This document shows, in pieces, positions 18,001 through 21,000 of a stretch of 64,000 nt of DNA. The stretch lies in contig CAWELD010000003.1 in NCBI GenBank assembly GCA_963809895.1, positions 832,001 through 896,000 of the forward strand. The letters are read 5' to 3'. Position 1 is the stretch's first letter; every line of letters starts with the position of its first letter. The position numbers are program-made. This stretch comes from an uncultured Gemmatimonadales bacterium (GTDB taxonomy: Bacteria > Gemmatimonadota > Gemmatimonadetes > Longimicrobiales > Gaopeijiaceae).

Positions 18001-21000
18001 CCGGCGGGCGCGCCGCAGGGTCGGGACGGAGCCCGGGGGAAACCATCGCGAGGGGTTTGGCGTACAAGTCATGTGAGTGCGTTCTGTTGGCGCCCCGGGC
18101 CGAAGACCTTGCCGTCACGGTCCGAACGTGGAAGATTCAAGAACGTTTTCCGGGCTCCCCATTCCGGAGTCCGAGTCCCCCCGATCAGGGACCCGCCGCG
18201 GCCCGGCCGCGAGCAGGGGTTGAAGATGGGCCTCCTCAGCATGGAGCGCCACCGACCGTGATCGTCGGGGTTCACCCGCTCGAGCTGTAGGACCGCGTGT
18301 GCCCGTGGGCTGCGGACTTCGGTATTCCTCGAAGCCCTCGCTCCCGGGCCCCCTCCCGAGGGTCGGTCCGCTCGTGCGTTCAAGCCAGGCCGGACCGGCA
18401 AGAGTGCCGCGTCCGGGCGAAACGAGTCCCCTCATGACGCGAGACAGCGACCGAACGTGAACGACGACACCCCCCTGGGAATCCTGGAGGTACTCGGAGG
18501 CGGCTCCGGGTTCATCCGGCGCAAGGACGCCGGGTACGTTCCCAGCAAGGACGACATCTACGTGGGATCCCGGGTCATCAACAAGTTCGGGCTCCGCACG
18601 GGCGACGAGCTCGCCGGCGACGTGGGCAAGCGCCCCAAGAGCGGCAAGAGCCCGCCCCTGACCCACCTGCGTCAGGCGAACGGCCGTCCCCCCGAAGAGG
18701 CCAAGAACCGGCCCGACTTCAACCGGCTGAGCGCCATGCACCCCGACGAGCAGCTCAAGCTCGAGTGTGGGCGCACCGTGGCCGGCCATGCCGACGCCAC
18801 CAACCGGGTCATCGACCTCTTCTGTCCCTTCGGCAAGGGCCAGCGCGCCATGATCGTGGCGCCCGCCAAGGCGGGAAAGACCATGGTCCTGCAGTCGGTC
18901 GCCGAAGGTATCGTCACCAACCACTCCGAGTGCGTCCTGTACATCCTCCTGGTGGACGAGCGTCCCGAGGAGGTCACGGAGATGGAGGCGTGCGGATTCG
19001 GTGAGGTCATCGCCTCCACCTTCGATCGCACCGCCGAGCGCCACTGTCAGGTGGCGGAGATGACGCTGGAACGGGCGCGCCGGCGGGTGGAGCAGGGCGA
19101 TGACGTCGTCATCATCCTGGACTCCATCACCCGACTCGCGCGGGCCTACAACACGGTGGAGGAGGGAAGCGGGCGCACGTTGTCCGGCGGCCTGGACGCC
19201 CAGTCGCTGGAGAAGCCGAAGCGCTTCCTGGGCAGCGCCCGCAAGATCGCCAACGACCAGGGCGGCGGCTCGCTCACCATCATCGCCACCGCGTTGGTGG
19301 ACACGGGCAGCCGCATGGACCAGGTCATCTTCGAGGAGTTCAAGGGCACCGGGAACAGCGAGCTCGTGCTCTCGCGCGAACTGGCGGATCGCAGGATCTA
19401 CCCGGCCATCGACCTGGCGGCGTCGGCCACCCGCAAAGAGGAGCTCCTGCTCAGCTCCGACGCCCTGGATCTGTCCCGGGCGCTGCGGCGTCAGCTCGCC
19501 GGGATCGGCACCGCCGACGCCATGACCGAGCTGTTGGGCGTCATGAAGCGCATGCCGACCAATCAGGAGTTGATCGACTACTACAAGCAGCGCGTCTGAT
19601 CCCCGTCGCGGAGCCGGAGGTCCACGCCTCCGGATCCGGACGTCGGCTCAGGAGCCGGGATCAGGAGGCGACGCGCTCGCCGTGTCCCCTCTCGTCGTGA
19701 ACGGGGGGGCGTCGTGGACCGACACGCCGCTCTCCACCAGGCTCAGCAGGTGCTCCAGGTCCTTCGCCATCTCGGAGCCCTGCATGCGGTTCATGCCCAG
19801 CGCCATGTAGGCGAGGAACGGGTTCCAGCCGAAATCGCCCTCCTCGGTCCACACCAGGCGCGTGCCCCCCGAGCCCGTGGCTTCGAGCTCCACCGAGCCG
19901 TGGGTCACCAGCGATCCCTCCTCCACGCGCACCTCGTACGCCACCCTCCGTGGGGGTTCGCTCTCGGTGAGGACCCACTCGCCCTGACCCCACTGGGGAT
20001 CGTCCCAGCTCCGTGTCGCTCCCACGCCTCCATCGGGCCCCGAGACCGTGGCGTCGACCTGGTCCCACGGGGTGAAGGCAGCCCAGCCGTCCAGGGAATT
20101 GACCCACGGGAACACGGCGGCCGGCGGCGCCGGGAGCTCCACGGTGCGCTCCGCGTGCCACGTTCCGGGCAGGGCGAGGCCGATGCCCACCAGGGTCAGG
20201 AGAAGGAGGGCGACGGCGGTGATGAAGATCTTCAGGGGCTTCACGGCCGCTTCTCCATGGCCACGAGGATCGAATCGAGGACGGGCCACACGTTGTGGGC
20301 CAGGATCAGATGCCCCTCGGCGGTGGGGTGGATTCCGTCGGGCTGATTGAGCTCCGGGATCCCTCCCACGTCCTGGAGAAGGAAGGGGACCAGCGCCGTT
20401 CCTTCGCTGCCCGCCACCCGGGGGAAAACTTCTCGGAAGCGAGTGGTGTAGTCCGGACCGAGGTTCGGCGGCGCTTCCATGCCCAGGAGGATGACGTGCA
20501 CCCCGGGGTGGCGTTGCCGCGCCGTTTGGACGATGGTGCGCAGGTTCGCCTCCAGGGCGCCGGGATCCTGCCCACGGAGCCCGTCGTTCGCCCCCAGCTC
20601 CACCACCAGGACATCCATGGGACGGTCGAGGAGGAAATCCAGGCGCCGGACGCCGCCCGCGCTGGTTTCGCCGCTCACGCCGGCGTTGACGACCTGGATG
20701 GGCAGGCCCGCCGAATCGGCGACGCGGCCCAGGACCTCGGGAAAGCGTCGGTCGGGATCGCGGAGGCCCAGTCCAGCGGTGAGACTCGTCCCCAGGAACA
20801 CGACCACGGGCCGGTTCGCCGCAACGCTGTCCGCCGGTTGCACGGGTGGCGTCGAATCCGCGGCGGCGGCGGGGGGGCTTCCGCCGGACGTGGGCTCGCA
20901 CCCCGCCAGCGCCAGCGCGGCGGCCACCAGGACACTCGGGAGTCTGGAACGCATATGATCGTGGCGGAGAATCTGGGAAAGACGTACGAGAGCGGTGGTC

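Follow-up and report, generated by a model that had tools for sequence, protein, structure and literature searches.

What role is left for a second transcription termination factor Rho that has no N-terminal helix bundle? The question is raised by a gene in a stretch of 64,000 nucleotides from an uncultured Gemmatimonadales bacterium (contig CAWELD010000003.1, positions 832,001 to 896,000), referred to here as the window. In its product, which has neither a helix bundle nor a disordered tail, the OB-fold RNA-binding domain leads straight into a complete Rho ATPase/translocase motor. From the sequence, we lean, by no wide distance, towards a functional second Rho of the minimal form known as 'Type 4' or 'Group B', which would act as an active ring with altered RNA capture and might have distinct termination targets. 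The features on which this reading is based are collected in Table 1.

Table 1. Features of the second Rho gene and its upstream region, in window coordinates; residues are those of the window protein.
Feature	Position	Strand	Basis or remark
Non-coding stretch ahead of the gene, possible 5' leader (about 300 nt)	18159..18456	+	metatranscriptome contig
Second Rho paralogue, CDS	18457..19599	+	380 aa, begins with GTG; coordinates include the stop
OB-fold RNA-binding domain, residues 8-80	18478..18696	+	Pfam Rho_RNA_bind 60.7 bits; AF2 model
RNP1-like motif G-S-G-F-I-R, residues 16-21	18502..18519	+	alignment to 1pv4; Ser17 at E. coli Phe62
G-K-S-P-P-L, residues 63-68, replacing canonical G-E-R-Y-L-A (RNP3; E. 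coli 107-112)	18643..18660	+	alignment
RecA-type ATPase domain, residues 117-324	18805..19428	+	Pfam PF00006 (ATP-synt_ab) 94.2 bits
Walker A / P-loop P-A-K-A-G-K-T, residues 136-142	18862..18882	+	Lys invariant in 35/35 paralogues
D-E-R-P-E-E, residues 167-172, with catalytic Glu168 and Arg169 'valve'	18955..18972	+	invariant in all 98 alignment rows
Q-loop G-S-G-R-T-L-S-G-G, residues 237-245, one element of the secondary RNA site in the central channel	19165..19191	+	alignment
R-loop T-G-S-R-M-D, residues 283-288	19303..19320	+	alignment
Arg313, Arg finger counterpart	19393..19395	+	invariant column

Is the gene complete, and is its start correctly placed? The preliminary description of this locus had reported a second Rho-family gene from which the N-terminal helix bundle is missing, and this is confirmed: the reading frame is intact, and the protein has an OB fold and an ATPase domain, with no Pfam match to Rho_N (PF07498) at E <= 0.1. 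The Rho_RNA_bind profile (PF07497) scores 60.7 bits against a cut-off of 27, whereas the canonical Rho of this genome reaches 113.9 bits. The OB fold follows the start codon by 7 residues, which is too short a distance to accommodate a helix bundle. The same description had cautioned that the start might lie further upstream. The frame is indeed open for 445 codons, closing 65 codons 5' of the GTG, and many relatives carry 35-136 additional N-terminal residues; both observations would suit a mis-called start and a longer protein, with a helix bundle or disordered tail encoded 5' of 18457. However, the 65 upstream codons contain no in-frame ATG, GTG or TTG, and they look non-coding because of their GC content by codon position (0.63/0.74/0.72, as against 0.66/0.44/0.92 in the gene). 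The translated upstream frame has no Rho_N match either. The GTG falls at the point where relatives have a conserved V/M-(S/N/T)-D start; of the 120 closest relatives, 58 begin at most 10 residues ahead of the OB motif, and gene callers give exactly 380 aa in 41 of the 120 best. The upstream start was rejected on these grounds, and a longer protein is very improbable.

The AF2 monomer model of the window protein has a mean pLDDT of 92.4 and contains an intact five-strand OB fold (E8-12, E18-21, E34-36, E51-56 and E67-74; pLDDT about 90). Superposed on E. coli Rho chains, the model gives a TM of 0.92 and an rmsd of 1.6 A over about 370 columns. Both copies in the genome had been said to reach the NCBIfam cut-off for Rho. 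This stands for NF006886 / PRK09376 'Rho', which the window protein matches with 487.3 bits against a cut-off of 315 (residues 8-374 on profile positions 53-411), but not for the Rho equivalog TIGR00767, where its 487 bits fall below the cut-off of 509.45. The canonical copy passes both models, with 663.8 bits in TIGR00767.

How widely are two Rho copies kept? The genome itself gives two Rho matches, the second of which (G000:C3:2320427-2321515) is 55-56% identical to the window protein, in agreement with the 56% reported before. This canonical rho encodes 418 aa with Rho_N, Rho_RNA_bind and the ATPase domain, and lies on the same contig as the paralogue, unlinked, at a distance of about 1.47 Mb. 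The earlier claim that nearly every genome of the class has both copies was drawn from 31 genomes, and it holds in a larger survey of 121 genomes that are at least 90% complete (Rho matches at E <= 1e-30; the unpublished genomes G018, G022 and G029 enter the tallies as counts, without their sequences). Two matches were found in 111 of these genomes, three in 3 and one in 7, giving at least two in 114/121. In other classes of the phylum, 18/18 genomes have a single match. Retention is not universal within the class: G075 (5 contigs) and G093 (4 contigs) have the canonical copy only, and the paralogue is dispensable in some lineages. The paralogue clade also occurs in cultured organisms; for example, the named isolate Gaopeijia maritima has the 380-aa form, 87% identical to the window protein. 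The uniform label 'transcription termination factor Rho' hides two different Rho proteins in most genomes of the class.

Have the second copies arisen by duplication, or were they acquired? In the tree, all second copies fall into a single clade (SH-aLRT 100), which sits on a long stem of 0.41 changes per site and is separate from all else among 143 representatives; three outside representatives nest within it, and no others group with it. The apparent sister of the clade, P0203, was flagged as a long-branch join. The clade is not adjacent to the canonical clade of the class in the tree, although an AU test does not reject adjacency (p 0.187). An origin by transfer from another phylum is neither supported nor contradicted by these placements. 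The phrase 'old, maintained duplication' had been used of this gene pair; 'old' and 'maintained' are justified by a single, class-wide clade with a dN/dS of about 0.1, but the tree does not settle between duplication and acquisition.

The dN/dS ratio is 0.10 in the pair from the genus of the window (0.10 in the N-terminal domain and 0.10 in the motor) and 0.07-0.11 in four further pairs, and the second copies are under purifying selection. Could the gene nevertheless be a decaying or functionless duplicate? Its loss in a few lineages is what such a duplicate would show. Against this, the frame is intact at every examined locus, the catalytic residues are invariant and retention is class-wide, all of which, together with the low dN/dS, makes a functionless duplicate scarcely credible.

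Which parts of the Rho machinery are kept? As had been described, the GFxR RNP motif, the P-loop and the ATPase core are all present, the first two as GSGFIR and PAKAGKT. None of the 35 paralogues departs from the Walker A Lys, the catalytic Glu, the Arg valve, the Walker B Asp or the Arg finger, and the Q- and R-loops are kept, so that all catalytic and channel residues checked are retained. Arg313 is the counterpart of the finger residue, Arg366 in E. coli numbering. The Q-loop has Arg-Thr in 35/35 paralogues versus Lys-Ile in 43/44 canonical copies; this pair was rejected as a signature of the paralogues, since Rho proteins of other lineages often have GRTLSGG. A motor of this kind would be expected to assemble into a Rho-like ring, hydrolyse ATP and thread RNA through the central channel as canonical Rho does.

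The primary RNA-binding site presents a different picture from the motor. We take the residues of this site in E. coli to be F62, F64, R66, D78, Y80, E108, R109 and Y110, and their assignment to sub-pockets, after E. coli structures, is likewise assumed. The window protein was aligned to 1pv4, the Rho of E. coli, and columns were counted, in E. coli numbering, over 44 canonical copies and 35 paralogues. At position 62, 44/44 canonical copies have Tyr or His, as opposed to Ser, Ala, Thr, Gly or Asp in 35/35 paralogues; the window protein has Ser. The acidic residue at 108 and the aromatic one at 110 are lost in the window protein in both alignment registers, the R109 position is Ser or Lys depending on the register, and no aromatic residue stands opposite the Tyr of canonical E-R-Y in any of the 35 paralogues. 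F64, R66, D78 and Y80 are kept in the window protein, with Arg66 and Asp78 retained in 35/35 paralogues. The window protein therefore has only part of the canonical primary-site set.

What would these changes mean for RNA capture? The pocket that receives the 5' pyrimidine of a YC dinucleotide appears to have been rebuilt, with Ser at 62 and G-K-S-P-P-L in place of E-R-Y, within a site that is otherwise preserved at positions 64, 66, 78 and 80. In E. coli, F62S and Y80C are described as 'disruptive primary binding site mutations' to which NusG-stimulated terminators are less sensitive (PMC11441560), and F62S is reported to impair both ssRNA binding and in vivo termination (PMC12133298). The paralogue clade is a natural carrier of the equivalent of this classic F62S defect. 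E. coli Rho has been reported to lose RNA binding when residues 1-27 are removed (PMC11347177). The preliminary description had predicted different RNA loading, and because the helix bundle is missing and the primary binding site is altered, this seems a reasonable expectation. The most likely outcome would be a terminator that recognises rut sites weakly or in an altered way. The transcripts on which such a protein acts might differ from those of the housekeeping Rho, or the protein might depend more strongly on NusG and RNA polymerase, as E. coli Rho mutants with a defective primary binding site do.

Does the paralogue need the canonical protein as a partner? It has been suggested that copies of Rho may form mixed rings (Moreira et al. 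2024, PMC11347177), and the paralogue could work only in mixed hexamers, with the helix bundle of the canonical subunits functioning in trans. Fewer full RNA-capture sites per ring would then tune the strength of termination. The paralogue shares about 60% identity with the canonical copy in the motor domain, fixed differences that separate the whole set of paralogues from the whole canonical set are few, and the two genes coexist in 114/121 genomes, all of which would suit such an arrangement. However, the long stem of the paralogue clade speaks against it, as does the distance between the genes, which are unlinked and therefore give no sign of co-expression. An obligatory mixed ring seems to us rather unlikely, and a ring of the paralogue itself is preferred.

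The region ahead of the OB fold and the OB fold itself vary greatly among the relatives, which have minimal N-termini like that of the window protein, an Arg-rich disordered tail, or a trimmed OB fold. Relatives in g3/g4, f7 and f8 carry an additional N-terminal region. The long forms of family f8 have a long Arg/Gly-rich region with no Rho_N, followed by the OB fold and the motor, and fall inside the clade of the window protein; they belong to a type B sub-clade ('TGWFDP'), and the window protein to type A ('LGILEVL'). In a third group, type C, the RNP2 and RNP3 segments are lost and Pfam Rho_RNA_bind no longer matches. About 46 of the 120 closest relatives have an Arg-rich tail and the window protein has none, which makes RNA capture the least explained step of the minimal form. 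The GC3 of the disordered tails is 0.58-0.82, and the tails are probably real, judging from conserved start motifs and the absence of nearer start codons. The clade thus provides a graded series of minimal, disordered-tail and trimmed-OB forms in one vertically inherited family.

Since the N-terminal domain is eroding in type C, the OB fold may matter little to the role of the family. An alternative is that the ring motor has been recruited outside transcription termination, for example to remodel R-loops or RNA-protein complexes or to act in RNA decay, with the degenerate OB fold and variable tails serving as adaptor sites. A highly plastic N-terminal region on a tightly constrained motor, and the existence of forms with no recognisable RNA-binding domain, are compatible with such a role. 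By contrast, the paralogue retains every RNA-channel loop typical of Rho, and a Type 4 protein is the only Rho of Fusobacterium nucleatum, in which the rho gene is essential (PMC11347177). The neighbourhood provides no candidate partner: the adjacent genes are unrelated to transcription, synteny (a GDSL lipase and an ABC transporter downstream) extends only within family f1, and no partner gene conserved across families was found. We regard recruitment to another task as unlikely, more so than obligatory mixed rings, and retain the view of a terminator with altered RNA capture.

Is the gene transcribed? One 778-nt contig in metatranscriptome library X1 spans 18159-18919 with 3 differences, and gives a weak hint of expression and of a leader ahead of the gene. 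The stretch 17616-18158 is uncovered in the metatranscriptome data, to which no weight is attached. For runs X21 and X22, as for the bins at 19172-19505, depth was rejected as a sign of expression, as it comes from short contigs of other organisms over the conserved motor motif. The putative leader gave nothing above chance against Rfam (best E 0.15, a trypanosomatid snoRNA), and it has no sigma-70-like promoter, no terminator on the + strand and no C-over-G bias (C 0.37, G 0.34). The DNA upstream of the gene did not align with that of two relatives and is not conserved in them.

A bolder extension of the preferred reading is that the class Gemmatimonadetes has a two-terminator system. The rebuilt primary site (a small residue at 62 and G-K/R-x-P-P-L for E-R-Y), kept under purifying selection throughout the history of the class, would recognise RNA other than YC-rich rut sites, such as structured or G-rich stretches of high-GC transcripts, or would load only via NusG and RNA polymerase. 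The Arg-rich tail, which is facultative and may be present or absent even between close relatives, would determine the affinity. This is put forward tentatively and is more doubtful than not. If it were true, the family would offer a natural experiment in the loading of Rho rings without the classical capture apparatus. The choice of targets by Rho is still loosely defined, and natural variants in which the motor is kept and capture is changed are useful probes.

How does the protein compare with forms of Rho that are already known? The preliminary description had treated Rho as an otherwise single-copy gene. This does not agree with Moreira et al. 2024 (PMC11347177), whose survey of 2730 genomes includes 116 with at least two rho genes; each of the 3 Gemmatimonadota genomes that they list has two copies (Table S5), of types T1 and T2d, and the idea of mixed rings is also theirs. 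An extra Rho of this kind has therefore been catalogued and is not new in kind, and with the phenomenon already in print the surprise is limited. Our literature searches on Rho paralogs, on the Gemmatimonadetes termination factor Rho and on Tyr80/Tyr110/Phe64 returned nothing relevant. NF041509 'paralog_Rho2' is a curated model of a short second Rho of about 360 residues, and its existence means that annotators already recognise short Rho paralogues. The window protein is not a member, with 425.9 bits against a cut-off of 628; type B (409), type C (365) and the canonical copy (473, higher than the window protein) are not members either.

Canonical E. coli Rho is about 50% identical to the window protein over E. 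coli residues 53-417 and shares its fold and its catalytic and channel motifs (1pv4, 3ice). In contrast to it, the window protein has no helix bundle, has replacements for Phe62 and E-R-Y, and scores below the TIGR00767 cut-off. The Type 2d proteins of Gemmatimonas and Gemmatirosa (Table S2, PMC11347177) belong by architecture to the same paralogue family, and resemble the long forms of f8. However, the window protein has only 7 residues ahead of the OB fold and so lacks the N-terminal region that defines Type 2d; the f8 forms that resemble Type 2d are of type B.

The closest match is 'Type 4', one of the names, with '2d', that Moreira et al. gave to Rho forms lacking the N-terminal domain, and the equivalent of 'Group B' of D'Heygere 2013 (PMC11347177). 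The window protein has the RNA-binding and Rho ATPase domains of this type and no N-terminal domain or initial, insertion or extension region. No Type 4 protein is recorded in Gemmatimonadota among the 2730 genomes of that study, and in its available part the rebuilding of the primary site seen in the window protein (Ser62; GKSPPL) is not described. In other respects the likeness is close: Type 4 proteins have conserved catalytic residues and are usually found as an additional copy in high-GC genomes that also encode a complete Rho (PMC11347177). This co-occurrence is usual but not obligatory, and here too the paralogue stands beside a canonical copy that has Rho_N.

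What does the second Rho gene of this genome encode? Pfam assigns residues 8-80 of the paralogue to the Rho RNA-binding OB fold (60.7 bits) and residues 117-324 to the ATPase domain, and does not find Rho_N in it. The NCBIfam Rho model PRK09376 is matched above its cut-off (487 vs 315) and TIGR00767 just below it (487 vs 509). The match to E. coli Rho (1pv4) spans E. coli residues 53-417 (E 2.6e-114). An AlphaFold2 model built from 28 input sequences (mean pLDDT 92.4) has a complete five-strand OB fold right at the N-terminus and superposes on solved Rho chains with a TM of 0.92 and an rmsd of 1.6 Å. 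The canonical copy lies on the same contig at a distance of ~1.47 Mb; Rho_N, the ATPase domain and the OB fold (113.9 bits) are all present in it, and it passes both Rho equivalog models. With the reading frame, domains and canonical copy as found by Pfam, NCBIfam and alignment, the preliminary description of a second Rho-family gene without the helix bundle beside the canonical rho is therefore correct as written; the identity of the two proteins, put at 56%, is 55% (205/372). A start further upstream, also considered there, is contradicted by the 65 open codons upstream of the gene, which contain no ATG, GTG or TTG, differ from the gene in GC by codon position (0.63/0.74/0.72 vs 0.66/0.44/0.92) and have a translation without likeness to any Rho domain in Pfam.

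Features and RNA-library contigs in the window
Feature	Position	Strand	Remarks
Second Rho ORF	18457-19599	+	380 aa; GTG start
183-aa ORF	17184-17735	-	hydrophobic N-terminal segment; Gly/Tyr/Asp-rich tail; no Pfam match; overlapped by the depth-83.6 RNA contig
Histidine-utilisation cluster	10014-16079		hutH-like aromatic amino-acid lyase, urocanase, ORF without family match, imidazolonepropionase-like amidohydrolase
RNA contig over rho2, 778 nt	18159-18919		3 differences; depth 24.4
RNA contig, same library	16500-17615		depth 83.6

The paralogue is preceded by the hut operon and followed by genes for an SRPBCC protein, a GDSL lipase and an ABC transporter, and this synteny is found within the family only. 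The 778-nt contig from one metatranscriptome library is consistent with expression and with a ~300-nt leader; DNA carry-over is possible, and contigs are no proof. A second contig of that library is deeper than the one over rho2.

How widespread is the second copy? Both paralogues had been said to be kept in nearly every sampled genome of the class, and this holds in a sample of 121 class genomes at least 90% complete (the unpublished G018, G022 and G029 included; match threshold E <= 1e-30): 111 have two Rho matches and three have three (G014, G050, G062; family f4). The remaining seven have one match. Judged by E-value, this is the paralogue in three fragmented assemblies (G025, G051, G074) and the canonical copy in G054, G075, G090 and G093. 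Loss of the paralogue looks genuine in G075 and G093 because their assemblies are near-closed (5 and 4 contigs). The other classes of the phylum, which the preliminary description had left open, were covered by a sample of 81 genomes (including the unpublished G140): all 18 genomes of those classes have a single Rho match, and 58 of the 63 within the class have two.

Do the second copies share one origin? Both copies from 34 genomes (10 families) were fetched, together with nine single copies from other classes and those of three single-copy class members, and a tree of 98 rows was built under LG+G4. All 35 second copies fall into one clade, together with a single database representative (stem 0.41, SH-aLRT 100). 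Thirty-five canonical class copies form a separate clade with the nine from other classes (99), with much shorter branches, and the order of families is broadly alike inside the two. When 143 representatives of a 1.84-billion-protein library were added with FastTree, only three fell inside the paralogue clade and none was its close sister. The paralogues are not adjacent to the canonical clade of the class in the tree; an AU test does not reject their placement beside it (p 0.187). Most simply read, the second copy arose by duplication at the base of the class, or was acquired there once, and evolved faster afterwards. A separate observation concerns the canonical, Rho_N-bearing rho of three f1 genomes (L034, L036 and L038, from G009, G013 and G021), which is not part of the phylum's otherwise tight canonical clade and groups with database representatives P0241 and P0128 (SH-aLRT 99). 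These genes evolve faster (dN/dS 0.18) and are either fast-evolving or replaced housekeeping copies.

When the 35 paralogues were aligned with 47 canonical copies from the phylum and with 16 outside representatives, none of the 35 departed from the Walker A Lys, the catalytic Glu, the Arg valve, the Walker B Asp or the Arg finger, and the Q-loop and R-loop are both kept. The dN/dS between the window gene and that of a congener is 0.10 (0.10 in the N-terminal domain and in the motor) and lies at 0.07-0.11 in four further paralogue pairs, values that are rough, dS being near 1 in several pairs. On the intact fold, the invariant catalytic residues and the low dN/dS, the paralogue is judged to be a working gene, conserved and very probably functional. 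Of the 'old, maintained duplication' proposed earlier, the first two words fit the single class-wide clade and a dN/dS of ~0.1; as to the third, tree and AU test do not separate duplication from acquisition.

The primary RNA-binding site differs between the two copies. Position 62 (E. coli numbering) is Tyr in 43 and His in one of 44 canonical copies. Paralogues of type A, the N-terminal sub-type that includes the window protein, have Ser (11), Ala (4), Thr (3), Gly (2) or Asp (1) here, types B and C have Gly or Ala, and none of the 35 has an aromatic residue. Positions 64, 66, 78 and 80 are Phe, Arg, Asp and Tyr in the canonical copies and in the window protein alike. The canonical E-R-Y (108-110) is replaced by G-K-S-P-P-L in the window protein, and G-(K/R)-x-P-P-L is conserved throughout type A; HMMER and MAFFT alignments lie one register apart in this region, with the acidic and the aromatic residue lost in both. 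We assume the assignment of primary-site residues to sub-pockets from E. coli Rho structures.

In E. coli, passages of PMC11441560 term F62S and Y80C 'disruptive primary binding site mutations', with a weaker effect at NusG-stimulated terminators, and ascribe reduced RNA binding to R109H when deprotonated. A passage of PMC12133298 describes defects of F62S in both ssRNA binding and in vivo termination, and one of PMC11347177 states that RNA binding is abolished when the first 27 residues are removed. Seen beside these mutants, the paralogue, with its missing helix bundle and altered primary site, natively unites several alterations of the sort that disable standard RNA capture in E. coli. The favoured mechanism, at moderate confidence, would be a Rho-like ring whose primary capture of RNA is altered or weakened. 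Mixed rings of paralogue and canonical Rho, a kind of hetero-hexamer also raised in part of PMC11347177, are less likely, and a role other than termination is slightly less likely still.

The N-terminus is the variable part of the paralogue family, with three sub-types. Type A ('LGILEVL...GSGFIRR'), as found in the window's own genus, in genus g2 and in several further families, starts 5-8 residues ahead of the OB fold; genera g3/g4 have an insert of 35-136 residues behind the same M/V-S-x-D start, made up of an Arg-rich patch and then an acidic stretch. Among the 120 closest database relatives, 46 carry such an insert, 58 share the short form of the window protein, and 41 have exactly 380 aa. 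Relatives P0023-P0120 and L006-L020 are 79-88% identical to the window protein in the core, yet the tail is present or absent. From these sequences, the Arg-rich/acidic tail looks like a module often gained and lost. In type B (family f8, 'TGWFDP') the tail measures 110-230 residues and opens with a conserved 'M-x-(E/D)-RRR-x-x-RRGR'; this architecture is also that of the '2d' forms listed for Gemmatimonas and Gemmatirosa in the part of Moreira et al. (PMC11347177) concerned. In type C (part of f5, plus f10) both the RNP2 and the RNP3 segment have been lost, and Pfam Rho_RNA_bind is no longer matched. Its loci L065, L067, L069, L071, L073, L075, L077, L097 and L110 encode ~340-356 aa with two OB-fold deletions; some have no ATG/GTG near the conserved 'ITGWFDP' start, L073 starting with TTG and L075 having no ATG/GTG/TTG-type start within 54 codons. 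Given the variable tails and trimmed OB folds of its relatives, the window protein is thus the barest form with a whole OB fold.

Where does this protein stand among known Rho proteins? The relevant sections of Moreira et al. (2024, NAR, PMC11347177) distinguish four Rho types, among them Type 4 without an N-terminal domain (58 sequences), and define a subtype 2d; they count at least two rho genes in 116 of 2730 genomes, suggest ancient duplications and trace the idea of such a Rho to 'Group B' of D'Heygere et al. (2013). Tables S2 and S5 of that paper give T1 and T2d for all three Gemmatimonadota genomes, and its main text has 0 occurrences of the phylum's name. NCBIfam already holds a model of a short-form paralogue (NF041509, 'paralog_Rho2 short form'), but the window protein scores far below its cut-off (426 vs 628). 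New here are the class-wide count and the lack of a second copy in the other classes of the phylum, the single clade of second copies and their purifying selection, the specific rebuilding of the primary site, including a natural equivalent of F62S, and the description of three N-terminal architectures, in which the tail is facultative. The paralogue is a minimal Type 4 form in Gemmatimonadota, within an already known sort of Rho paralogue.
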